64,000 nucleotides of DNA, taken from the NCBI GenBank assembly GCA_963668315.1, contig OY764216.1:1408001-1472000 (forward strand). Direction: 5' to 3'. The notes below the pieces were generated by a model that made no database searches, was not told the DNA's origin, and worked only from the letters and a program-made list of their open reading frames with translations. The stretch comes from Spirochaetia bacterium (GTDB lineage: Bacteria; Spirochaetota; Spirochaetia; DSM-2461). This document shows positions 1-12,671 of the stretch, piece after piece (position 1 is the stretch's first letter; the number at the start of each line of letters is the position of its first letter). Position numbers and translations under genes: made by a program.

Positions 1-108
1 ACATCCCAGCTGAGCGGACTTTCCGTCTCCGGGGTGAGGAAGCGGTTGAGGAAGCTGAGAGAAGCGGGATTGGAAATGGAAGGATATACGGCGGAGAGAA
101 GCAAATGA
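1..108 (+). CDS. 3' end of probable ECF sigma factor (region 4.2 HTH), partial
   Basis: Frame 1 reads TSQLSGLSVSGVRKRLRKLREAGLEMEGYTAERSK*, similar to ECF sigma4 'xGxSxxxVrxRLxr'. The stop overlaps the next ATG (ATGA at 105-108). Confidence 0.65.
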   Translation, partial: TSQLSGLSVSGVRKRLRKLREAGLEMEGYTAERSK

Positions 109-899
109 AAGATAATAAAAAAATAATGACAGAACTGTTCCGCCTGGGGGAGCTGCCCGAAGGCTGGGAAGATAAAGTTGACAGAGAAACCATTGACGGT
201 GATGTGAGCGAGCTTCTCTCTTCCGACCGTGATATTCTGGATAGGTACAGGCCTTCCCGGATGGCCGCCGAGATTGAGGAGAAGGCACGGAGCGCCCGGG
301 CCGGCAGGAAACGGAATCGTGTCAGGACGGCGGTTGCCTATACGGCGGCGGCCGCGGCCATGCTGGTCATGGGGCTGATTCTTCCCGGAATCATGACCGA
401 ATCTACCGAATTTGACCCTGCCGGAACGACCCGGATCAAAGGTCAGTCGGAAGCCGGACTTACCGTCTACCGCAATACGGGACTTTCCACGGAAGTTCTC
501 GATGAGAACAGTACGGCCCGGGAAGGGGATCTCATTCAGCTGGGCTATTCCGTCTTTACCGAAATGCCCTACGGTATCATCCTTTCCATAGACGGCCGGG
601 GAATTGTCACACGCCATCTGGCGCCGGAAGGCCAGATCTCCGAAAAACTTCTCCCCGGAGGAGAACATCTTCTGGATTTTGCCTACGAGCTTGATGATGC
701 CCCACGGTTCGAAACATTCTATCTGCTTGTCTCCGACAGGCCCTTTCCCGTGGATCCTGTGATCGATCTTCTTTCCAGGGAAGCCCGGGGAGAGGGAAAT
801 ATCATCGATATTCCGGAGATCATAGGAAAAAGCTCTCTCGATTCCCGCGGAATTGGAAAAATGGTTCAATTCGCGGTATCAATACCCAAAGAGGATTAG
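105..899 (+). CDS. Putative anti-sigma factor: cytoplasmic N-terminus, one TM helix, periplasmic DUF4384/ActD-like domain
   Basis: Basic stretch followed by hydrophobic AVAYTAAAAAMLVMGLILPGI, then TRIKG and 'AREGDLIQLGY...ILSIDGRG.VT.H...AYELDDAPRFETF'. Translationally coupled to the upstream sigma fragment. Confidence 0.7.
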   Translation: MKDNKKIMTELFRLGELPEGWEDKVDRETIDGDVSELLSSDRDILDRYRPSRMAAEIEEKARSARAGRKRNRVRTAVAYTAAAAAMLVMGLILPGIMTESTEFDPAGTTRIKGQSEAGLTVYRNTGLSTEVLDENSTAREGDLIQLGYSVFTEMPYGIILSIDGRGIVTRHLAPEGQISEKLLPGGEHLLDFAYELDDAPRFETFYLLVSDRPFPVDPVIDLLSREARGEGNIIDIPEIIGKSSLDSRGIGKMVQFAVSIPKED

Positions 900-903
900 T
901 ACA

Positions 904-2994
904 GTGAAGAAAAATACTCTCTTTATGATATTTTTTACCCTATCCGTTCTTTTCAGTGCCCGATGGGGGAGCGCTCTGAATGCAGAAGCCATGGAAGTCC
1001 GCCGTTTCGGCCTGTTTATCGGAGCCAACAACGGAGGGGATGAGCGCCAGACTCTGCTTTATGCCGATGATGACGCCCGGGATATGATGCTGACCATGGA
1101 GCAGATAGGGGGCATCGATCCTTCGGACAGCCTCCTGCTTCTGAACCCCACCGCCGGGAAAATCCGGGAGGCCCTGAAAATCATCTCCCTTCAAATCGAA
1201 GATGTTAACCCCCTGGTCAGACGGACGGAAATCATGTTCTACTACTCGGGACACTCCAACGGTCAGGGGCTTCTTCTGGCCGATGAAGATCTCTCCTACA
1301 AGGATATCAGAGACTCCCTGGACACGACCGGCGCGGATGTGGTCATCGCCGTTCTCGATTCCTGCTCATCCGGCGCCTTTACCAGGGCCAAGGGCGGCGA
1401 GAGACGCTCCCCCTTCCTGATCGACGAATCGTCCAGCATGGAGGGACATGCCTTTCTCACTTCCAGTTCCGAATCTGAACTGTCCCAGGAATCGGATCTT
1501 ATCGAGGGATCTTTCTTTACCCATTACCTTATCTCCGGTCTGCGGGGAGCGGCTGACAATACGGGAGACGGGCGTGTTTCGCTTAATGAGATTTATGAGC
1601 ATACCTTCCGGGAAACCCTTTCTTCCACGGAATCCACCATCGGCGGCCCTCAGCATGCTACCTATGAGATTCAGCTGACCGGTACGGGCGATTTGGTTTT
1701 GACCGATCTGACGATTCCCACCTCTGCGCTTCTGATCTCCGGGGAACTGGCAGGGCGCTTTTCCGTACGCTCCGGAGACAAACTGATAGCGGAGTTTTCC
1801 AAATACCGGGAGGATACCTTTAAAATGGCCCTTCCCGCCGGGGAATATACCATTAATATGGCCGATGGGGACGATGTCCGTTATGCCGATATCGAACTGA
1901 GTCGCAACGGACAGTTCTTTCTTACCGAGAAGGATTTTTCCAGCCGGCGGCTTGTCTGGACCCGCTTCCGAGGGGAGAGGAACTCCGATGAGGAGGTGGA
2001 AATCCCCTTTACCCTTTCACTCTTTCCCGGCATAAATTATCCCACTCTTCCCGATAACTCCGTTGTCATGCTGCAGGCGGGATTGAGTGCCTATGCCCCC
2101 CGGTTTGAAGGGGTGCAGGCCAGCTATCTGTTCAATATCACCCAGGATGACAGTGAGGGAGTTCAGGTTTCCCAGAATTTCAATATTGCCCGAAGTAATT
2201 TTCAAGGCATTCAGGGAGCGGGTATATTCAACATAGCCGGGGGAAACCTCCAGGGAGTACAGGGCGCCGGACTTTTCAATATCGCCGGAGATGAGCTGAG
2301 CGGACTTCAGGCGGCGGGACTTTTTAATATGGCCGGGCGCCCCTCTTCGGGAGTACAGCTCTCCGGCCTATTCAATATAGCCGGAGAGCTGGAGGGTTTT
2401 CAGGCGGCGGGTTTGTTCAATTCGACCGATTATCTGGACGGTATGCAGATCTCCCTGGTAAACAAGGCGGGAACGGTCGACGGGTTTCAGCTCGGGCTGG
2501 TCAATATCGCCCGTGAAATGGACGGCTTGGCCGTGGGGCTTATCAATATTTCCCGGAACGGAATCGTCGATCTGGGTGCCTGGTATGACAGCGGGGACGG
2601 TAAAATGTATACCTTCTTTCAGTCGGGAAGTCCCTATTTCTACACGCTCTATTTCATCGGCAATGAATTTCCCGACCATTCGGAAAGGGAGACTGTCTGG
2701 GGGGCCCATGCCGGATGCCGCCTGGGACTGGGCCCCCTGGAGATCGATCTGGACGGAGGATTCAGAAGCGCCTGGCAGGATGTCATGGATTCGGGAGCCG
2801 ATACTCCCTATCTTCTTCCCTCCGGCCGGGCTGTGATCGCGTTCAAAGGTCTGGGACTCTTCTGCGGATTCAGTGCGGTCATGTCTTTCCCGGGAAGTTA
2901 TGAATCCACCCTCTACGACGGGGACAGCTTCGCTCTCTTCGGGAATGAGGATTACCATATCTATCCGGACTTTATCATCGGCTTAAGGATCTGA
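904..2994 (+). CDS. Exported caspase-like (peptidase C14) protein with G-x-Q-x-x-G-x-x-N repeats and a probable C-terminal beta-barrel
   Basis: GTG at 904 after GAGGA; signal peptide; 'FIGANNG', YYSGH (His 1252-1254) and VLDSC (Cys 1363-1365). About 10 repeats at 2104-2560. Ends in an amphipathic strand, FIIGLRI. Confidence 0.85.
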   Translation: MKKNTLFMIFFTLSVLFSARWGSALNAEAMEVRRFGLFIGANNGGDERQTLLYADDDARDMMLTMEQIGGIDPSDSLLLLNPTAGKIREALKIISLQIEDVNPLVRRTEIMFYYSGHSNGQGLLLADEDLSYKDIRDSLDTTGADVVIAVLDSCSSGAFTRAKGGERRSPFLIDESSSMEGHAFLTSSSESELSQESDLIEGSFFTHYLISGLRGAADNTGDGRVSLNEIYEHTFRETLSSTESTIGGPQHATYEIQLTGTGDLVLTDLTIPTSALLISGELAGRFSVRSGDKLIAEFSKYREDTFKMALPAGEYTINMADGDDVRYADIELSRNGQFFLTEKDFSSRRLVWTRFRGERNSDEEVEIPFTLSLFPGINYPTLPDNSVVMLQAGLSAYAPRFEGVQASYLFNITQDDSEGVQVSQNFNIARSNFQGIQGAGIFNIAGGNLQGVQGAGLFNIAGDELSGLQAAGLFNMAGRPSSGVQLSGLFNIAGELEGFQAAGLFNSTDYLDGMQISLVNKAGTVDGFQLGLVNIAREMDGLAVGLINISRNGIVDLGAWYDSGDGKMYTFFQSGSPYFYTLYFIGNEFPDHSERETVWGAHAGCRLGLGPLEIDLDGGFRSAWQDVMDSGADTPYLLPSGRAVIAFKGLGLFCGFSAVMSFPGSYESTLYDGDSFALFGNEDYHIYPDFIIGLRI
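2104..2560 (+). repeat. About 10 tandem 14-16 aa repeats (GxQxxGxFNxA; LA_2272-like surface repeat)
   Basis: GVQASYLFN, GVQVSQNFN, GIQGAGIFN, GVQGAGLFN, GLQAAGLFN, GVQLSGLFN, GFQAAGLFN, GMQISLVN, GFQLGLVN, GLAVGLIN. Confidence 0.85.
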
Positions 2995-3072: not shown

Positions 3073-3471
3073 ATGGGAAATTATCCCGATTTTACCTATG
3101 CCCATACGGGACTTAACGTCGATGACAGGGAAGCCTGCGAAAAATGGTATGTAGAGAATCTTAATCTGAAGATTGTCCGTTCCGTTCCCGGCAATATGAG
3201 TTTTCTTGCCGATCCTACGGGCCGGGTTGTCCTGGAGATCTACTCCAATAAAGCGGCTCCGGTTCTGGACTTTCCCGGTATTCATTTCCTGTCTCTTCAT
3301 CTTGCCTTTCTTGTGGATGACCCGGAAAAAAGAGCGTCGGAATTGATTAAGGCGGGGGCGACAATCGCCGAAGACTATAAAATCACCGATGTGGGGGACA
3401 GAATGATTATGCTTCAAGATCCCTTCGGTGTGGCTATTCAATTAATCAAGAGACAGGAACCCATGTTCTGA
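3073..3471 (+). CDS. VOC/glyoxalase family protein
   Basis: AAGGAG RBS; 'HTGLNVDD...WY...LG', 'LEIY', 'HLAFLVDD', 'QDPFGVAIQL'. Confidence 0.85.
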   Translation: MGNYPDFTYAHTGLNVDDREACEKWYVENLNLKIVRSVPGNMSFLADPTGRVVLEIYSNKAAPVLDFPGIHFLSLHLAFLVDDPEKRASELIKAGATIAEDYKITDVGDRMIMLQDPFGVAIQLIKRQEPMF

Positions 3472-3527: not shown

Positions 3528-3821
3528 CTAATCCTTATTTTTCTTTTTGTTCCGTGACAGGGAGAGGCTTCCGAATCCTCCGAGAATACCCATATAAAAA
3601 CCAAGATCGTACCAGAAGCCCGTATTATGGACCTCGTAGATATTGAGATGCTCGCGGAATATACTGAATATCAGAGATATCGGGGCCACCCATCCGTGCC
3701 AGATTCCCCAGAGCATGTTGGCCGGAGCCTCTCCTGTTGCTTTTCCATCGCCGGGAAGGCAGGATGCCAGAAGAAACATCATGGATAGCATCAGGATGAT
3801 GTATTTTGTTTTCACTTTCAT
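3528..3821 (-). CDS. Small membrane lipoprotein, conserved hypothetical
   Basis: Lipobox LASC; 'WGIWHGWVAPIS...IYEVHNTGFWYDLGF'; AAGGGAG RBS. Confidence 0.7.
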   Translation of the reverse strand: MKVKTKYIILMLSMMFLLASCLPGDGKATGEAPANMLWGIWHGWVAPISLIFSIFREHLNIYEVHNTGFWYDLGFYMGILGGFGSLSLSRNKKKNKD

Positions 3822-4000
3822 ATCGATCTCCCTTTTTAACAGTATACTCCTTTAGAACAGTTCGGCAAGGAAAAACTGTCACAGTTCCCAGGAAGAACTT
3901 CTGCAACCGGGAGATTCCCCATAGCCTCCCTTTATCCGGACGTGCTTCGCTATGGAAAAAGTACGGGAAATATATAAAATTAAGGTATGAGGAGATGATC

Positions 4001-4285
4001 ATGAAAAAATATATAAAAAAGCCCCTGATATTTGCCGCCTTCCTGATGCTCTATTCCTGTGCGACAGTTACGGTTCCCGTAGCGGCCACATCCAACGATC
4101 TGGGACGGCTTGTGGGGCGATCGTCCGGTACGGTCTGGTTGGGTATTTTCGGAGAGGCCGATGCCAGTATTATGGAAGCGTGCCGCGACGGGGGAATCCG
4201 GGAGATCTCCACGGTGGACTTCAAAACGGAGCTTCTTTTTCTGGGCCTGGGAAAGCGCTATACCTGCATCGTGACGGGAGAGTAA
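4001..4285 (+). CDS. TRL-like family lipoprotein
   Basis: GAGGAG RBS; lipobox LYSC; 'GDASI..A...GGI..I..VD...C.IVTGE'-type pattern. Confidence 0.7.
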   Translation: MKKYIKKPLIFAAFLMLYSCATVTVPVAATSNDLGRLVGRSSGTVWLGIFGEADASIMEACRDGGIREISTVDFKTELLFLGLGKRYTCIVTGE

Positions 4286-4408: not shown

Positions 4409-5581
4409 TTAAAGGGTATTCACGTCGGCGGAGTAATCCACCCCTTCCACTTCAAAACCGTGGAGTTCCATGTAATCCTTCTTGAAACCTTCCAGATCTC
4501 CCTTTTCTGCCAGGAGATCTTCATCCACCCTGTCCCAGAGGGAAGCGACGGCTTTCTGCACGTCGTCGGCCATTTCCCAGTCGTCCATGCGGACGAATCC
4601 CTGGCCGTCTTTTATGGTCCCTTCCGATCCGTAGATCTTATCGGACAGCATACGCTGCATCTGTTCGCGGCAGCCCTCGTGGGTTCCCTTTTCCTTCATG
4701 ATTTTGAAGAGCAGGGCTATGTAAACCGAGACACCGGGAATAACGGCGCTTGATCGTGTTACCAGAGCTTTGTTGACCGAGATAAAGGCTTCACCGGAGA
4801 GATCGTTCAGCTCTTTCTGAAGTTCGCTGGCCGTAGCTTCCAGGTGTAGCTTGGCCTGTCCGATTGTTCCTTCCCGGTAAATAGGGTAGGTCATGGGGGA
4901 ACCGATATAGGTATAGGCCACGGTCTTGACGCCATCGGCCAGAACGCCGGCTTCCTTCATCGTTTTGATCCAGAGAGCCCAGTCCTCGCCGCCCATCACC
5001 TTGACGGTGGCGTTGATTTCCTCTTCCGATGCCGGGTCCAGGGTCAGACTTTTCAGTTTTCCGCTCAGGTCCATGGCAAAAGAGGTATAGGGTTCTTTGA
5101 TGGTCTTAAGGACAGACCGGTACATCTCTCCCGTATCGGGATCGGTCCTGACAGGAGAGGCAAGGCTGTATACAACCATATCCACCTGTCCGTCCTCGAA
5201 GAACGTTTTGATCCTGTCGATGACGGTTTTTCTCGTATCATGGGAAAAGGCATCGGCGTTGATGCTTTCGGCTTTCAGACCATCAGCCTGAGCCGCCGCA
5301 TCAAAGGTTCTGTTATTGTAGAAACCGGGTGTTCCCGGTCTTTTGGCGCTGCCCTCTTTTTCAAAGGAAACGCCCAGAGTATCGGCTCCGCCGGAGAAAG
5401 CGGCGGAAATTCTGGTGGCCAGGCCGAATCCGGTGGAACAGCCCAGAACCAATACTCTTTTAGGCATGGAGACCTTAGGCTGAGCCTTGGCCCACTCGAT
5501 GTCTCTTTTTACGATGGCCTCGCATCCCACAGGGTGGGAGGTAAGGCAGACGTTGTTCATGATTTTAGGTTCAATTATCAT
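4409..5581 (-). CDS. fabV: Enoyl-ACP reductase FabV / trans-2-enoyl-CoA reductase
   Basis: 'HPVGC', GCSTGFG, YSLASP, 'VKVMGGEDW', Y-x8-K (YREGTIGQAK). Confidence 0.95.
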   Translation of the reverse strand: MIIEPKIMNNVCLTSHPVGCEAIVKRDIEWAKAQPKVSMPKRVLVLGCSTGFGLATRISAAFSGGADTLGVSFEKEGSAKRPGTPGFYNNRTFDAAAQADGLKAESINADAFSHDTRKTVIDRIKTFFEDGQVDMVVYSLASPVRTDPDTGEMYRSVLKTIKEPYTSFAMDLSGKLKSLTLDPASEEEINATVKVMGGEDWALWIKTMKEAGVLADGVKTVAYTYIGSPMTYPIYREGTIGQAKLHLEATASELQKELNDLSGEAFISVNKALVTRSSAVIPGVSVYIALLFKIMKEKGTHEGCREQMQRMLSDKIYGSEGTIKDGQGFVRMDDWEMADDVQKAVASLWDRVDEDLLAEKGDLEGFKKDYMELHGFEVEGVDYSADVNTL

Positions 5582-6003
5582 TACGCTTCTCCTGCTAAGC
5601 ACATCCAGCTGGCCTGACAGGCCAGTTCGTCACCCACAAAGGCTTTGCCTTTCTGTTTGATCATCCGGCCGGAAACCATTTCGTTCTCGATTTCAAAACG
5701 GACTTCGTCGCCGGGAACAACCTGACGGCGGAACTTCGCCTTTTCAACGGTTGCCAGGAAGAAGAGGGCGCTCGCCGCAGCGGCTCCGCTCTTCTTCAGG
5801 CCGGCGCCGCCGACCTGTGCCATCGCTTCAATCAGCAGTACGCCCGGCACGACGGGATGACCGGGGAAATGTCCTTTGAAAAAGAAATCCGATTCGGTGT
5901 ACTTTCTATATCCAATTATGTTCTTTTCGTCACATTTTTCAATACGATCGACAAAAAGAAAGGGATCTCTGTGAGGGAGAAGCTGTTCAATTTCGTTACT
6001 CAT
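5581..6003 (-). CDS. fabZ: 3-hydroxyacyl-ACP dehydratase
   Basis: LPHRDPFLFVD, FFKGHFPGHPVVPGVLLIEAMAQ. Confidence 0.97.
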   Translation of the reverse strand: MSNEIEQLLPHRDPFLFVDRIEKCDEKNIIGYRKYTESDFFFKGHFPGHPVVPGVLLIEAMAQVGGAGLKKSGAAAASALFFLATVEKAKFRRQVVPGDEVRFEIENEMVSGRMIKQKGKAFVGDELACQASWMCLAGEA

Positions 6004-6010
6004 AGTGTTC

Positions 6011-7252
6011 TTACCCCTTATACTTCTTAATTACGATGGAACCGTTGTGTCCGCCGAATCCCAGGTTGTCCGAAAGGGTCGCATTGACCTCCATTTCTAT
6101 TCCTTTGTTGGGAACATAATCCAGATCACATTTTTCGTCGGCTTCGAAGAGGTTCATTGTTCCGGGAACAAAACTGTCCTGGATGGCCTTGATACAGACA
6201 ATGGCCTCAACACCGCCGGTGGCACCCAGCATATGGCCGTGCATGGCTTTGGTGGAGCTTACCTTGACCTTTTTGGCATGATCGCCGAAGGCTTCCTTGA
6301 TGGCCAGGGTCTCGCAGGGGTCATTAATGGGGGTGGAGGTACCATGGGCGTTGATATAATCGATATCTTCCGGCTTGAGCCCGGCGTCTTCCACGGCAAT
6401 TTTCATACTGGCAGCGCCCCCCTTACCTTCGGGGTCGGGCGCGGTGAGATGACCGGCATCGCAGGTCATTCCGAAACCGGCGATTTCGGCGTAAATCGTG
6501 GCTCCCCTTTTCTTGGCATGTTCCAGTTCTTCAAGAACCAGAATGCCCGCGCCCTCGCCCATGACAAAACCGTCCCGGTCCTTGTCAAAGGGGCGGCTGG
6601 CTGTTTTGGGGTCGTCATTCCGGGTACTGAGGGCCAGGAGTTTGTTGAACGAACCCACCGCAAAGGGGGTAATCGTCGCTTCCGTTCCGCCGGAGACGAT
6701 GATGTCGGCCATGCCGGAGCGGATGGTGTTCATCGCGTAGCCGATGGCATCCGTGCCGGAGGCACAGGCCGTGGCCAGGGCAAAACAGGGGCCGTGCAGG
6801 CCGTATTTGATGGAAACGTTTGCCGGACCTTCGTTGCTGATCAGCTTCGGTATGGCCATGGGGGCGATACCTGCCTGGGGGCCTTTGGCTGCCAGGCCGC
6901 GGATATTTTCCTCGGTTACTTCGAATCCGCCGATTCCGCATCCCAGGATACAGCCGGCTCTGTTGTGATCGAAGTTATCCTCCGTAAGGCCGGCATCATT
7001 CATGGCTTCCGCAGTGGCGGCCACGGCAAACTGGGTGAATCGGGCCATCTTCCGGGCTTCTTTTCTGTCCATAAAATCGGAAGCGTTAAAGTCTTTGACT
7101 TCTGCGGCAATTTTGGTGGCGAATTCGGTCGTATCGAACTGAGTGATCAGATCGATACCGATCGTACCGGCTTTTATGTTTTTCCAGAATTCTTCTACGC
7201 TGTGTCCTATGGGATTGATGGTTCCCATTCCGGTTACTACTACTCTTCTCAT
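6011..7252 (-). CDS. fabF: Beta-ketoacyl-ACP synthase II
   Basis: RRVVVTGMG, TACASG, NAHGTST, GHMLGATG, GFGGHN. Confidence 0.97.
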   Translation of the reverse strand: MRRVVVTGMGTINPIGHSVEEFWKNIKAGTIGIDLITQFDTTEFATKIAAEVKDFNASDFMDRKEARKMARFTQFAVAATAEAMNDAGLTEDNFDHNRAGCILGCGIGGFEVTEENIRGLAAKGPQAGIAPMAIPKLISNEGPANVSIKYGLHGPCFALATACASGTDAIGYAMNTIRSGMADIIVSGGTEATITPFAVGSFNKLLALSTRNDDPKTASRPFDKDRDGFVMGEGAGILVLEELEHAKKRGATIYAEIAGFGMTCDAGHLTAPDPEGKGGAASMKIAVEDAGLKPEDIDYINAHGTSTPINDPCETLAIKEAFGDHAKKVKVSSTKAMHGHMLGATGGVEAIVCIKAIQDSFVPGTMNLFEADEKCDLDYVPNKGIEMEVNATLSDNLGFGGHNGSIVIKKYKG

Positions 7253-7266
7253 TTTATCTTCTCCTC

Positions 7267-8004
7267 CTACATTACCATTCCGCCGTCAACGGTCAGAACC
7301 TGACCGGTAACGTAGCGAGCCATATCCGATGCCAGGAAAAGCACTGCATTGGCTATATCTTGCGGTTCACCCAGCTGATTCATGGGAATCTGTGCCTGAA
7401 TGGATTCTTTAATATCATCTTTAAGTTTTTCTGTCATATCGGTCTTGATAAAACCGGGGGCAATGGCGTTAACCCGAACGCCCCTTTTGGCCGTTTCCTT
7501 GGCCAGAGCCTTGGTAAAACCGATTAAGCCGGCTTTGCTGGCGGCGTAGTTCGTCTGTCCTGCGTTACCCATGAGGCCGATAACGGAAGCCATATTGATG
7601 ATGACGCCCGATCTCTGACGGATCATGAAACGGGAAGCTTCCCTGGCCACGATAAAGGCTCCGGTCAGGTTCACATCAAGAACCTGCTGCCACTGTTCGG
7701 TACTCATGCGGAAGACAAGTCCGTCTTTTTCAATGCCCGCGTTGTTGATGACTACATCCAGTCCGTCCTTGGTGACTTCTTCCAGAATCTTCACAACGCC
7801 CGCTTCATCGGTCACATTTCCCTGGTACCATTTAAGGGAGGTGCCTGCCGCTTTGGCTTTTTCCTCCATCTCGCTGTGGAAGGGGCTTTCCTTCGTGCTC
7901 AGATAGGAAACATGGGCACCCTGTTCGAGACAGGCCATGACAATTGCTTTCCCGATACCCCGGGAACCACCGGTTACAAATACTTTCTTATCCTTTAACA
8001 GCAT
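7267..8004 (-). CDS. fabG: 3-oxoacyl-ACP reductase
   Basis: TGGSRGIG, NNAG, YAASK, APGFIKTDMT. Confidence 0.96.
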   Translation of the reverse strand: MLLKDKKVFVTGGSRGIGKAIVMACLEQGAHVSYLSTKESPFHSEMEEKAKAAGTSLKWYQGNVTDEAGVVKILEEVTKDGLDVVINNAGIEKDGLVFRMSTEQWQQVLDVNLTGAFIVAREASRFMIRQRSGVIINMASVIGLMGNAGQTNYAASKAGLIGFTKALAKETAKRGVRVNAIAPGFIKTDMTEKLKDDIKESIQAQIPMNQLGEPQDIANAVLFLASDMARYVTGQVLTVDGGMVM

Positions 8005-8022
8005 GATTACCTCGCTTATATA

Positions 8023-9006
8023 TTACCAAATTAAATAGTTCCCGCCGTAGGTCAATCCGGCGCCGAACCCAACGGTCAGTATTTTCTGACCTTTCTTGAG
8101 AAGACCCCTTCTGTCCATATCGGAAAGGGCCAGGGGAATGGACGCTCCGGAAGTATTGGCGAATTCGTCCATATTCAGGTAGAACTTGTCAAGAGGGATC
8201 TTATCCCGCTTGGCCGCCGCCTCTATGATGCGTCTGTTAGCCTGATGGGGGACGATCCAGTCGATGTCATCTACGGACAAATTATTCCTTTCCATTAAAT
8301 CTTTCAATATGACCGTGTTGGCCCGAACGGCGAATTCATAAACCCGCCGGCCGTCCATCTGCAGAAAATGGTCTTTGCCCACGATTTCTCCCTCTATGAA
8401 GGGATTGGAGGTTCCCCCCCGGTTATGGCTCAGCGCATCGGAGCCCGAGCCTTCGGCCCTTAAGAGAGAGTTGATTACCCCCCGGGGTTCTCCTTCGCCG
8501 GCTTCGAGAACAACCGCTCCCGCTCCGTCTCCGAAGAGGATGCAGTTGTTTCTGTTGGTCCAGTCCAGGACACGGGAGAGCCTTTCCGTGCCGATAACCA
8601 GGATCTTATGGCAGGTCCCGTTATTTATAAGGCCCTTGCCCAGCTCCAGTCCGTAGACGAAGCCGGAGCAGGCGGCTTTGATATCCATGGCGCCGCAGCT
8701 GTTGTTTCCCAAAAGATCCTGTATCAGGCAGGCGGTGGAGGGCATTTCATGATAATCCGCCGTTATGGTGGAGACAAGGATCATATCAATGTCCTGCGCC
8801 GTAATGCCCCGCTTCTCCAGGGCTTCCTGGGCAGCCTTATATCCCATGTATGAGGTCGTTTCTGTGTCTGAGGAGATATGCCGATTTCCTATTCCCGTGT
8901 GGGAACGGATCCATTCATCACTGGTATCAAGGGTTTTCGCCAATTCATCATTAGAGACCCTTTTTTCCGGAACGTAATGTCCCAATGAACTGATATAAGC
9001 ATTCAT
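8023..9006 (-). CDS. fabH: Beta-ketoacyl-ACP synthase III
   Basis: AACSGF, FGDGAGA, PHQAN, ANTSGAS, GFGAGLT. Confidence 0.96.
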   Translation of the reverse strand: MNAYISSLGHYVPEKRVSNDELAKTLDTSDEWIRSHTGIGNRHISSDTETTSYMGYKAAQEALEKRGITAQDIDMILVSTITADYHEMPSTACLIQDLLGNNSCGAMDIKAACSGFVYGLELGKGLINNGTCHKILVIGTERLSRVLDWTNRNNCILFGDGAGAVVLEAGEGEPRGVINSLLRAEGSGSDALSHNRGGTSNPFIEGEIVGKDHFLQMDGRRVYEFAVRANTVILKDLMERNNLSVDDIDWIVPHQANRRIIEAAAKRDKIPLDKFYLNMDEFANTSGASIPLALSDMDRRGLLKKGQKILTVGFGAGLTYGGNYLIW

Positions 9007-9013
9007 GAATCTC

Positions 9014-9073
9014 ATTATTTACATTTTCTGCCATTTTGTCAATATTGACAGATTCCACTATTGGGGATATATT
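9014..9073. promoter_or_regulatory. Divergent sigma70 promoters for the fab and acc operons with back-to-back -35 boxes
   Basis: Perfect palindrome TGTCAATATTGACA at 9037-9050. + strand: TTGACA-N17-TATATT. - strand: TTGACA-N17-AATAAT. Confidence 0.75.
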
Positions 9074-9113
9074 AGAAAAAGCGATTGAATTTTGAAATAA
9101 AGGAGTATCTCCC

Positions 9114-9584
9114 GTGTCGAATGGTTTTGTAAAGGATAAGGAAGACCTGTTTGAATTAATGGAGAAATTCGAAAAATCTGATATGAGCGAACTGACTCTC
9201 AAATTTGACGATCAGCTCATTAAAATGAAAAAGGGGGGCGATCAGAATATTATGGCACCCCTGGCTCCCATGGCCCAGCAGTACGCCGCTGCACCTGCGG
9301 TATCCGCAAGTGCTCCGGCTTCCGATGCTCCGGCCGCCGTCGAGGGTGAAATTATCTCCGCCCCTCTGGTGGGAACCTTTTACCGTCAGCCCGCACCGGA
9401 TGCCCCTCCCTTCGTAGAAGCGGGGACCAAAGTTAAAGCCGGTGACACTCTTTGTATTCTGGAAGCCATGAAGATCATGAATGAGCTGGAAGCGGAGTTT
9501 GACTGTGAAATACTGGAAGTTCTGATTGATTCGGGGGCTCTCGCCGAATTCGGAACACCTCTTTACCGGGTAAAACGCTTATGA
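9114..9584 (+). CDS. accB: Acetyl-CoA carboxylase biotin carboxyl carrier protein
   Basis: GTG after AAGGAG; APLVGTFY, EAMK biotinylation motif. Confidence 0.96.
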   Translation: MSNGFVKDKEDLFELMEKFEKSDMSELTLKFDDQLIKMKKGGDQNIMAPLAPMAQQYAAAPAVSASAPASDAPAAVEGEIISAPLVGTFYRQPAPDAPPFVEAGTKVKAGDTLCILEAMKIMNELEAEFDCEILEVLIDSGALAEFGTPLYRVKRL

Positions 9585-10897
9585 TCAAGCGCCTTCTGAT
9601 AGCAAACAGAGGGGAGATCGCCGTTCGAATTATCAGAACTTGCCGCGAATTGGACATTGAAACGGTTGTGGTTTATTCCCAGGCGGACGAAGACTCCCTG
9701 CCCGTAAAAATGGCTGATCAGGCCGTTTGCATTGGACCTCCGTCCTCCACGGAGAGTTATCTTAAGAAAGAAAGCCTCATCAGTACGGCCCTGGCCACGA
9801 GATGTGAGGCTATACATCCCGGGGTCGGTTTTCTTTCGGAGAACGCCGATTTTGCCGAAATGTCCAGGGAGGCAGGTCTGATCTTTATCGGTCCCGACCC
9901 CCGGGTCACCCGGATGCTGGGAGACAAGGTTCAGGCCAAGAGAACCGCCGATGAAGCGGGTCTTCCCCTGATCCCCGGCAGCGACGGCGCTGTGGAGTCG
10001 GTGGAAAAGGCTCTGGAACTGTCCAGGAGTATGGGATTCCCCCTTATCGTGAAAGCAGCTTCCGGCGGCGGCGGAAAGGGTATGCGCATCGTTAATTCCG
10101 AAGCGGAATTGAAATCGGCATTTCCCATAGCCAGCCAGGAGGCGGCCAATAATTTCGGCGACCCGACTCTGTATATGGAAAAATACATGACCAGGCCCCG
10201 TCACGTGGAAGTTCAGCTTCTGGCCGACGGTAAGGATAACGTCATCTATCTGGGGGAGAGGGATTGTTCTGTACAGAAAAATCACCAGAAACTCCTGGAA
10301 GAGTCTCCCTCCACCATCCTTACCGATGATATGCGGGACAGGATTGAAAAAGCTTCGGTGACCCTTTTCAGAAATATCGGGTACTGCGGAGCGGGAACGA
10401 TCGAATTCCTCGTGGAAGGGGGAGAGTTCTTTTTCATGGAGGTCAACGCCCGGGTGCAGGTGGAACATACCGTTACCGAACTCATGACGGGAGTGGATAT
10501 AATCCGCCAGCAGATTCTGGCCTGTACCACCGGTCGGATGGAAATAACCCAGGACGATGTGAATGTTAAGGGTTATGCCCTTGAGGCCCGTATCAATGCC
10601 AGAGGTGCCGGTCGGATTACAAACTTTTTTCCTCCCCTGGGACCCTACGTCAGGGTTGATACTCATATCTTCCCCGGCTATCTGGTTCCTCCCTATTACG
10701 ATTCCATGATAGCGAAGGTTCTTGTTCAGGCACCCAACAGAACACAGGGAATCAAGCGGATGATCCGTGTTCTCAAGGAAATGGAGCTGGAAGGGGTAGA
10801 GACCAACCGGGATGAGCAGATCGTTCTGCTGAAATGCCGTCCCTTCCAGTCGGGTAATTTCGATACGGCCCTCTACGGCCAGATCATTAAAGACTGA
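9581..10897 (+). CDS. accC: Biotin carboxylase
   Basis: IANRGEIA, GGGGKGMR, ERDCSVQ, FMEVNARVQVEH, YYDSMIAK. Confidence 0.96.
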   Translation: MIKRLLIANRGEIAVRIIRTCRELDIETVVVYSQADEDSLPVKMADQAVCIGPPSSTESYLKKESLISTALATRCEAIHPGVGFLSENADFAEMSREAGLIFIGPDPRVTRMLGDKVQAKRTADEAGLPLIPGSDGAVESVEKALELSRSMGFPLIVKAASGGGGKGMRIVNSEAELKSAFPIASQEAANNFGDPTLYMEKYMTRPRHVEVQLLADGKDNVIYLGERDCSVQKNHQKLLEESPSTILTDDMRDRIEKASVTLFRNIGYCGAGTIEFLVEGGEFFFMEVNARVQVEHTVTELMTGVDIIRQQILACTTGRMEITQDDVNVKGYALEARINARGAGRITNFFPPLGPYVRVDTHIFPGYLVPPYYDSMIAKVLVQAPNRTQGIKRMIRVLKEMELEGVETNRDEQIVLLKCRPFQSGNFDTALYGQIIKD

Positions 10898-10907
10898 GGA
10901 TAACCCT

Positions 10908-11708
10908 ATGGTAGATATGAATAATCCCTATGCCCAGGTCCAGGAGGCAGAGTGCCCCCGGTGCATGACCGTCATGACCGCCGAGGCTATGAAAAATCAC
11001 TATCAGGTATGCACAGGCTGCGGCTATCACTTCCGCATGCCCGCCGCCGCCCGAATCCATCATATTGTTGACGAAGGTTCTTTTCAGGAAATGGATCATG
11101 ACCTGGTCAGTAAAAACCCCATTGCCATCAAGGGGTACGAGGAGAAAATCTCCGAGGCCCAGAAAAAGTCCGATCTGTCCGATGCCGTGGTAACCGGTAC
11201 CGCCAGAATCGACGGGCAGAACTGTGTCCTGGGGGTTATGTCCTTCCAGTTCATGGGAGGCAGCATGGGATCCGTCGTAGGTGAGAAGATCACCCGGGCC
11301 ATGCTTCATGGAGCCGATACGAATCAGCCTGTGATTCTCTTTACCGCTTCCGGCGGCGCCCGTATGCAGGAGGGAATCTTTTCCCTGATGCAGATGGCAA
11401 AAACGGCCAATGCCGCCGCCCTGCTTGATGATCTGGGTATCCCCCTGTTTATCGTTCTTACCCATCCTACTACCGGTGGTGTAACGGCTTCCTTCGCCAT
11501 GCTGGGCGATGTCACTCTGGCCGAACCGGGCGCCCTGATCGGGTTTGCCGGTCCCCGGGTTATCGAGGGAACGATCAATAAGAAACTTCCCGCCGGTTTC
11601 CAGAGTGCCGAATTCCAGCAGGAAAAGGGGTTCGTTGATAAAATCGTCCCCCGGAAGGAACTCAAAAAGACCCTGTCCTTTCTGATCAGGACCCATACAG
11701 GAGCGTAA
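10908..11708 (+). CDS. accD: Carboxyltransferase beta subunit
   Basis: C4 zinc finger, FMGGSMG, SGGARMQEG, PTTGGV, GFAGPRV. Confidence 0.96.
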   Translation: MVDMNNPYAQVQEAECPRCMTVMTAEAMKNHYQVCTGCGYHFRMPAAARIHHIVDEGSFQEMDHDLVSKNPIAIKGYEEKISEAQKKSDLSDAVVTGTARIDGQNCVLGVMSFQFMGGSMGSVVGEKITRAMLHGADTNQPVILFTASGGARMQEGIFSLMQMAKTANAAALLDDLGIPLFIVLTHPTTGGVTASFAMLGDVTLAEPGALIGFAGPRVIEGTINKKLPAGFQSAEFQQEKGFVDKIVPRKELKKTLSFLIRTHTGA

Positions 11709-11711
11709 GCT

Positions 11712-12671
11712 GTGGACGAACTGAAAAACAAGCTGGAAGAGCTGAAGGCTCTGGCCGGCAAGGAAAATCTGGATATAAACAAAAATCTGGCAGAGATCGA
11801 GGCTATGCTCAATGTGGGCAAGGATTCTCCCACCTGGGAAAAGGTCCAGCTGGCCCGCCGCCTGGACAGACCGGGGGCTCTTGAATACATCAGCCTGATC
11901 TGCGACGAGTTCATGGAGCTGCACGGCGACCGTTATTTCAAGGATGATCCGGCCCTTATCGGAGGCATCGGCACAATCAACGGTCAGGCCATCACTTTTA
12001 TCGGAAATCAGAAGGGTTCCAACCTCAAGGAGAACCTCTACCGCAACCACGGTATGGGAAGCCCCGAAGGCTACCGGAAGGCCCTGCGCCTGGTTAAACA
12101 GGCCGAGAAGTTCCACCGTCCTGTCGTCTCCTTCATAGATACATCGGGTGCCTATCCCGGACCCGAAGCGGAAGCGCGGGGAATCGGAGAGGCTATTGCC
12201 CGGAATCTCAAGGAATTTTCCCTGGTGAAGGTTCCCATTATCTGTTTCGTCATTGGCGAAGGCGGATCGGGCGGTGCCCTGGGAATCGGCGTGGGCGATA
12301 AGCTTTACATGCTGGAAAATTCCATCTACTCCGTCATATCCCCGGAAGGTTTCGCTTCGATTCTTCTGCGTGACAGCAATAAGGCCAAGGAAGCGGCGGA
12401 TATCATGAAGATGACAGCCAAGGATCTCTTCGAGTTCGGCATTATACACGGCATCATTCCCGAAGCTCCCGGCGGAGCCCAGAATGATCCGTCCTACACC
12501 GCGAATATGATCAAGGAGCTCATCCTTTCCAATATCGAAGTGCTTAGTAAAAAGAAACCGGACAGCCTCATACGCTACCGGTCCCGTAAAATCCGGGAAA
12601 TCGGTCAGTTTACCGAAAACGCCGGGAAAGAGCAGGACCTTTTCAGTCTGTTTTCCCGTCTCTTCTCATAA
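11712..12671 (+). CDS. accA: Carboxyltransferase alpha subunit
   Basis: ELHGDR, PEGYRKALR, GEGGSGGAL, YSVISPEG. Confidence 0.96.
   Translation: MDELKNKLEELKALAGKENLDINKNLAEIEAMLNVGKDSPTWEKVQLARRLDRPGALEYISLICDEFMELHGDRYFKDDPALIGGIGTINGQAITFIGNQKGSNLKENLYRNHGMGSPEGYRKALRLVKQAEKFHRPVVSFIDTSGAYPGPEAEARGIGEAIARNLKEFSLVKVPIICFVIGEGGSGGALGIGVGDKLYMLENSIYSVISPEGFASILLRDSNKAKEAADIMKMTAKDLFEFGIIHGIIPEAPGGAQNDPSYTANMIKELILSNIEVLSKKKPDSLIRYRSRKIREIGQFTENAGKEQDLFSLFSRLFS

Follow-up and report, generated by a model that had tools for sequence, protein, structure and literature searches.

In the RpoE/RseA/DegS/RseP system, a single-pass anti-sigma factor is cleaved in two steps, the site-1 cut being made near the membrane. 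Here, we describe a three-gene module at the start of a 64,000-nucleotide stretch of DNA (hereafter, the window) from a Spirochaetia bacterium (GTDB lineage Spirochaetota; Spirochaetia; DSM-2461; assembly GCA_963668315.1, contig OY764216.1, positions 1,408,001 to 1,472,000, forward strand). The module encodes a sigma factor of the extracytoplasmic function (ECF) type, a candidate single-pass anti-sigma factor, and an exported caspase-family protease. As with RpoE, two-step cleavage is predicted and RseP is present; however, DegS is an inner-membrane serine protease, whereas the candidate here is a co-encoded cysteine protease that is predicted to be tied to the outer membrane. The module is real and widespread, and it would belong to ECF regulated proteolysis as a variant with a separate caspase. 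From the sequences, we consider it reasonably probable that this caspase serves the module as its dedicated site-1 protease, freeing the sigma factor by a cut in the anti-sigma after Lys112.

Cell-surface signaling by FecA/FecR/FecI and FoxA/FoxR/FoxI likewise relies on three co-encoded proteins under proteolytic control: an outer-membrane protein whose N-terminal domain is periplasmic, an anti-sigma in the inner membrane, and an ECF sigma (what is said here of published work refers to the portions of the papers accessible to us). While the partner in FecA-type systems is a TonB-dependent transducer with an STN domain, here it is a predicted small barrel carrying a protease, and domain searches returned no TonB, STN, or FecR match on either the anti-sigma or the caspase. 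The module would thus work like cell-surface signaling but is not a member of it. In DdvS/DdvA of Myxococcus xanthus, too, the anti-sigma of an ECF sigma crosses the membrane once; DdvA has in the periplasm a caspase-family His-Cys domain that has been proposed as the site-1 activity, its self-cleavage is hypothetical, and RseP cleavage of the truncated anti-sigma has been shown (PMC11506125). In contrast to the present separate C14 enzyme with its predicted outer-membrane anchor, the DdvA protease is a TPR-CHAT domain within the anti-sigma itself, and the flanks of our module hold no defense island. Craspase (Csx29/Csx30/CASP-sigma) is similar in that a caspase-family protease acts on a putative anti-sigma (per PMC11506125), but it is cytoplasmic, RNA-guided, CRISPR-linked, and built on a CHAT enzyme.

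Operons pairing a sigma-70 factor with a metacaspase, as ours does, have been reported before: four in Myxococcus xanthus DK1622 and others in Anaeromyxobacter, Haliangium, Sorangium, Ralstonia, and Fibrobacter (Asplund-Samuelsson et al. 2012, PMC3501461). These probably belong to the family of the present module or its paralogues, although the accessible text of that paper discusses programmed cell death and does not name an anti-sigma, a barrel anchor, a cut motif, a promoter, or a mechanism. The idea pursued here therefore has precedents, in those operons and in the caspase-family site-1 proposal for DdvA. Among ECF groups, ECF25 is similar in having a single-pass anti-sigma at position +1, often with DUF4384, and in its occurrence in Spirochaetes, Fibrobacteres, Deltaproteobacteria, and Acidobacteria (Casas-Pastor 2021, PMC7826278). 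It differs in its promoter (GGAAC/GTC in subgroups s1 and s2, against GTRACA/TGTT here), and the accessible part of that paper mentions no caspase neighbor. CHAT neighbors are mentioned for ECF54 (PMC8999054), and the accessible part of PMC7935541 added nothing on cut sites. No description of the three-gene mechanism was found in the literature searched, although an ECF group with a caspase neighbor could have been missed.

The features of the module are as follows (positions are those of the window; G000 denotes the bacterium's own genome, and other G and L labels denote genomes and loci).

1..108, + strand: 3' end of the ECF sigma gene (whole gene about G000:C1:1407617-1408108, about 163 amino acids (aa), probable CTG start)
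105..899, + strand: predicted single-pass anti-sigma, 264 aa (gene 2), with a cytoplasmic N-terminal domain lacking zinc ligands, a membrane helix, a linker, and a DUF4384-like C-terminal domain
327..386, + strand: predicted membrane helix of the anti-sigma, residues about 75-94, from hydropathy
429..443, + strand: T109-R-I-K112-G113, conserved linker motif of the anti-sigma, with the candidate site-1 cut after Lys112
904..2994, + strand: exported C14 caspase-family protease, 696 aa (gene 3), with a signal peptide, caspase, beta-rich middle domain, 10 repeats, and a predicted small outer-membrane barrel
1003..1623, + strand: Peptidase_C14 domain, with His117 (nt 1252-1254), Cys154 (nt 1363-1365), and the pocket residues Asp57 and Asp152
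1381..1398, + strand: site A, T160-R-A-K163-G-G, candidate self-processing site (Lys 73/73, Arg 72/73, Gly 72/73)
1960..1974, + strand: site B, T353-R-F-R356-G357, candidate release site (Arg 71/73, Gly 70/73)
2101..2559, + strand: 10 LA_2272-type repeats of 14-16 aa, predicted beta-solenoid stalk (NF047436 LA_2272 repeat, 42.2 bits vs 25)
2560..2991, + strand: predicted small (about 8-stranded) outer-membrane beta-barrel (alternating pattern; homology at E about 4e-24 to stand-alone exported genes in L029 and L046)

As judged from open reading frames (ORFs) and from extension to the left in the bacterium's own genome, the three genes lie on the same strand and are tightly packed: the sigma TGA overlaps the gene 2 ATG, the sigma tail stopping at 108, and the GTG start of gene 3 at 904 follows 4 nt after the end of gene 2. 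An earlier note made from the window alone had seen here an ECF-like sigma tail and three coupled genes, and both observations were borne out. The complete upstream gene is an ECF sigma (TIGR02937, 59.4 bits vs a cut-off of 42.9) with Sigma70_r2 above its cut-off and a weak r4_2 match just under it. Its start, at L001:9617-9619 immediately left of the window, is apparently a CTG with a good ribosome-binding site, as in L002, L003, and L005 of the same clade, and in many other loci it is GTG or TTG; such unusual start codons may dampen translation.

Gene 2, encoded at position +1 after the sigma, has one hydrophobic segment only, in line with the single membrane span the note had described. Its position and architecture make it likely that gene 2 is the anti-sigma that holds the sigma inactive. 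The note's second label for it, a DUF4384-like domain, needs more care: gene 2 itself has no DUF4384 match in Pfam, but 16 of 39 aligned homologues match PF14326 at E<=0.01, so the label is fair. DUF4384 occurs in 24-33% and zf-HC2 in 11-23% of the members of its Atlas neighbors, and distant paralogues of the anti-sigma bear zf-HC2-like N-termini. Searches of the anti-sigma found nothing credibly similar among solved structures and no CHAT, TPR, or FecR match.

The protease, whose signal peptide was judged by eye, matches Peptidase_C14 at 30.3 bits (cut-off 21.4). The intact His/Cys dyad noticed earlier proved to be a family-wide feature, since His117 and Cys154, together with Asp57 and Asp152, are unvarying in 73/73 aligned caspases (the split gene of L069 and the truncated one of L048 excluded). 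The closest solved structures are distant metacaspases only (best E 2.6e-5), and Asp57 lines up with the pocket Asp of those enzymes. In C14B enzymes, two Asp residues form the Arg/Lys pocket and accommodate basic P1 residues (PMC6426788); because both are present here, the caspase is predicted to cleave after Arg or Lys. The protein family is conserved to about residue 357 and variable beyond. Elsewhere in the genome (G000:C1:5429773-5485378), about eight caspase-like ORFs of more distant kinship, one of them 1642 aa long with two matches, form a cluster that is unrelated to the module.

To determine how widely the arrangement is kept, GTDB genomes were scanned for relatives of the anti-sigma with a DNA pattern that did not contain the R-x-K-G motif discussed below, and the best 80 of at least 527 confirmed loci were retained. 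They include representatives of Spirochaetota, Acidobacteriota, Myxococcota, Latescibacterota, Fibrobacterota, and Eisenbacteria. Upstream of the anti-sigma, there is a sigma gene in 78/80, both misses being contigs that start at or in the anti-sigma, and a caspase lies downstream, at position +2, in 74/80; the gene order sigma, anti-sigma, caspase, whose conservation the note had set as a check, is thus kept across several phyla. Among the loci without an adjacent caspase, the sequence stops within 150 nt in L077 and L079, and in L080 1.2 kb without a match follows, the genome having a second full pair. In L029 (Myxococcus) and L046 (Corallococcus), the +2 gene encodes a signal peptide and barrel only while the anti-sigma keeps its motif; the family has 7 and 6 further caspases in these genomes, respectively, and activation in trans by a paralogous caspase is possible there. 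Genes are split in L049, L069, and L077, probably by frameshifts.

Across the bacterium's own genome and 60 relatives (n=61, kin not being independent), 26 have both anti-sigma and caspase, one has the anti-sigma only, none has the caspase only, and 34 have neither. The three proteins' pairwise distances are correlated (r about 0.69, 55 loci), which any set of co-inherited genes would be expected to show. Among named homologues, the closest come from Spirochaetales, with 63-67% identity, and cultured myxobacteria carry several paralogues of the module. The anti-sigma profile reaches 1,842 clusters at 50% identity with E<=1e-30 and 4,858 with E<=0.001, and no relative of the caspase module was found in the viral contigs searched. 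Among the sequencing runs listed, none of RNA carried it, which has no bearing on whether it is expressed. A Rosetta-stone search for gene fusions gave five longer matches; P0393 and P0394, like P0040 from a separate search, reach a caspase only through out-of-frame text, look like frameshift artefacts, and were rejected. One 'ActD-like' label hinted at the act operon of Myxococcus, a link that was dropped when no supporting paper was found.

A hint of what the protease might cut is a short motif common to both partners. In the anti-sigma, R110-x-K112-G113 has Lys in 81/81, Gly in 80/81, and Arg in 72/81 sequences, and it sits 7-35 residues past the membrane helix in 80/81. The best 150 independent representatives, found with a profile that included the motif, gave Lys 149/150, Gly 148/150, and Arg 137/150. 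Among 66 non-redundant anti-sigmas, no K/R-G pair other than K112-G113 reaches >=90% conservation, and the linker around it is gapped, variable, and mostly under 35% conserved. The caspase has three conserved K/R-G pairs (K163-G164, R214-G215, and R356-G357). The first belongs to site A, nine residues after the catalytic Cys154, and the last to site B, at the border where the conserved caspase module gives way to the variable membrane tail; site B is absent from three related caspase-less genes with the middle domain and barrel. When the profiles of anti-sigma and caspase are compared locally, the top match is the R-x-K-G motif itself (E 0.04, weak), and in six distant myxobacterial paralogues the anti-sigmas retain K/R-G and the caspases retain site A. 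Self-cleavage is needed for the activity of the orthocaspase MaOC1 (PMC5756287). The simplest reading is that the enzyme would recognize one motif both in itself and in the neighboring anti-sigma.

Beyond residue 357, the caspases diverge in a way that bears on how they may be anchored. The approximately 10 repeats of the earlier description were confirmed by a count of 10, with NF047436 over its cut-off, yet repeats were found in only 38/61 complete caspases; the remainder run straight into a tail of about 170-290 aa, and two caspases end early. Repeats are therefore dispensable within the family. The last ~145 aa of gene 3 have no Pfam match, so that the proposed barrel-like C-terminus is a prediction; what speaks for a barrel is about eight alternating segments seen by eye and the homology to the stand-alone exported genes of L029 and L046, where the repeat-type barrel is encoded alone behind a signal peptide. 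A loose beta-signal pattern matches the C-terminal ends of 50/61 caspases, and 5/12 repeat-less tails match the outer-membrane barrel family PF13505 (OMP_b-brl), all below the cut-off. In the ESM Atlas, the repeat-barrel tail matches unnamed clusters only, and C-terminal tails differ across lineages.

Even-stranded barrels have periplasmic termini. With a complete small barrel following the repeats, both repeats and caspase would therefore be periplasmic, and a periplasmic stalk plus anchor appears to fit better than a surface sensor. The note's outer-membrane sensor is not supported, since the repeats are dispensable and the tails exchangeable.

The sigma factor of the module would read GTRACA-N16-(G)TGTT, a motif that was found by word-pair enumeration upstream of the sigma genes. 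The top word pair occurs in 34/65 non-redundant upstream sequences, compared with at most 11 in shuffles. The motif lies within 150 nt of the sigma gene in 65/79 loci, against a background of 23/4917 windows, and farther upstream, mostly before an inserted gene, in 10 of the 14 others, so that it is present in 75/79 and missing from four; its spacer is 16 nt in 64/65. In the bacterium's own genome, the copy at G000:C1:1406909, left of the window, precedes a fourth gene directly upstream of the sigma (L001:8970-9602, outside the window) that encodes an exported, barrel-like protein of 210 aa; the operon therefore likely comprises four genes. An unusual Cys/Trp/Asp-rich tail closes the 210-aa protein and is conserved in L002 and L004.

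Genome-wide, there are 20 matches to the motif against about 43 expected. A regulon drawn from the motif alone was therefore rejected, and only sites shared among orthologues were kept. One of them lies in the window.

3856..3882, - strand: second promoter-like motif GTRACA-N16-NTGTT, 61 nt before a 97-aa gene
3528..3821, - strand: gene for a 97-aa predicted membrane lipoprotein, with the motif before its orthologues in G000, G002, and G003

The motif thus precedes this gene in three of the four genomes of the genus, and the lipoprotein is likely in the sigma regulon; no motif was found before its homologues in L003 and L041. The motif also stands before a TonB-receptor-like gene in three genomes (G001-G003), which has no orthologue in G000, and before a lipoprotein gene shared by two genomes of the genus. 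Further copies often precede genes for exported barrel-like proteins, repeat-plus-barrel or caspase-less middle-domain-plus-barrel proteins, and a DUF4097-like protein, and others precede TonB-dependent receptors (L021 and L051; L063 by homology). Because the motif is shared before few, mostly envelope genes and is not enriched genome-wide, the regulon looks small and envelope-centered.

Caspase-less paralogues with a signal peptide, middle domain, and barrel lie right after the caspase in L008 (8546-9571), L032 (8502-9470), and L045 (from 8528). They have their own promoter motif and no site B, and could possibly be decoys or feedback regulators. The motif is nearly palindromic (GTAACA...TGTTAC; sites in L004, L041, L044, L047, L066, and G003:C75, C77, and C227), which explains some of the reverse-strand matches. 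Read in reverse, the sites of L041 and L047 face a barrel-like gene, and single sites may drive divergent transcription. Around the 97-aa gene, a glyoxalase/VOC-like gene (window 3073-3471, +) and a small lipoprotein gene (3961-4285, +), both labeled by eye, sit between the module and an ordinary fatty-acid synthesis cluster (4409-12671; FabV-, FabZ-, FabF-, FabG-, and FabH-like genes and acetyl-CoA carboxylase, also by eye), which is unrelated to the module.

Several observations weigh against site-1 cleavage by the caspase at this motif, or against the counts that point to it. The second pocket Cys of metacaspases is Ala in these caspases. R214-G215 is conserved inside the caspase fold, so conserved K/R-G pairs need not be cut sites, and the K-G, lying immediately ahead of the first strand, could be conserved for structure or for docking; a cut site and a docking site are not distinguishable by conservation alone. 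The anti-sigma of L011 keeps the motif although no caspase of the family lies nearby or elsewhere in its 2.0 Mb draft (possibly incomplete), the G064 anti-sigma keeps it too (genome possibly incomplete), and G047, 94% complete, has the anti-sigma and no caspase match. The 80 loci, chosen as the best of a larger set, favor close relatives, and the promoter motif was derived from the same loci in which it is counted, besides showing no genome-wide enrichment.

Other arrangements of the same parts were considered. The caspase module might bind and stabilize the anti-sigma, with R-x-K-G as a docking or pseudo-substrate loop, until a signal parts them and the first cut falls to a general periplasmic protease, much as the FoxA signaling domain shields FoxR from proteolysis until its signal arrives (PMC11637429). 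Such protection accounts equally well for the co-occurrence and the motif conservation, and the caspase-less middle-domain-plus-barrel genes under the same promoter suggest that the middle domain binds on its own. However, a dyad and pocket invariant in 73/73 imply that catalysis is under selection, and the motif ends in Lys-Gly, matching the caspase's own candidate processing sites; we consider protection unlikely. The caspase could also be an output of the sigma, processing or clearing envelope proteins while a general site-1 protease cuts the anti-sigma and K-G is merely structural. While its place in an operon behind a sigma-type promoter, like other barrel genes, and the 6/80 anti-sigma loci without an adjacent caspase are what an output would show, other promoter-led genes vary by lineage whereas the caspase is fixed at +2, and the barrel-only loci L029 and L046 are in genomes that hold other caspases of the family. 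The position of the motif in a gapped, variable linker, and the absence of a matching motif from the regulon barrels inspected by eye, also speak against a mere output, which we rank below protection and regard as improbable.

Autotransporters have the layout of signal peptide, enzyme, beta-solenoid, and C-terminal barrel, the same order as in gene 3, and the NCBIfam name of LA_2272 is 'surface repeat'. The repeats and caspase could, on this basis, lie outside the cell and act on external substrates, leaving the anti-sigma unreachable. Autotransporter translocators are 12-stranded, though, and small outer-membrane barrels have a periplasmic N-terminus; a barrel of only about 145-200 aa is too small for the former, and the sub-threshold PF13505 matches of repeat-less tails point to the latter. 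A surface location would also leave the shared motif unexplained, and we think it highly improbable.

If the caspase is the site-1 protease, signaling may proceed as follows: (i) the protease would be exported and anchored by its small barrel, with the caspase in the periplasm and the repeats, where present, serving as a stalk; (ii) it would cleave after Arg/Lys and process itself at site A; (iii) an envelope cue would either bring it to the inner membrane or release it through a cut at site B; (iv) the protease would cut the anti-sigma at R-x-K|G, so that about 17 residues remain as a stub; (v) RseP would then cleave within the membrane; and (vi) from GTRACA-N16-(G)TGTT, the sigma would transcribe its own operon together with a few envelope genes, closing a positive feedback loop. 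For the cue, disturbed outer-membrane protein assembly or envelope damage is our guess. The genome does encode RseP (TIGR00054, 236.8 bits vs a cut-off of 147.55), which is weak evidence because the family is near-universal.

In its most ambitious form, the proposal describes a new type of trans-envelope transducer: an outer-membrane-tethered caspase with an interchangeable small barrel that would activate itself, free itself at the R|G junction, cross the periplasm, and cut the anti-sigma at R-x-K|G, thereby reporting on outer-membrane integrity or barrel assembly and switching on outer-membrane genes. We offer this full sequence of events tentatively, as a possibility that is more doubtful than the site-1 cut itself.

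A natural substrate or role is known for few bacterial caspases. The module offers a co-encoded candidate substrate whose putative cut site is Lys112|Gly113, along with two sites where the protease may process itself and a promoter that is a candidate target; with a candidate substrate, a candidate cut site, and a candidate promoter together in hand, the role of a caspase as an ECF site-1 protease is directly testable. If it is true, bacterial caspases in >1,800 protein clusters would gain a signaling substrate and a consensus unrelated to cell death.

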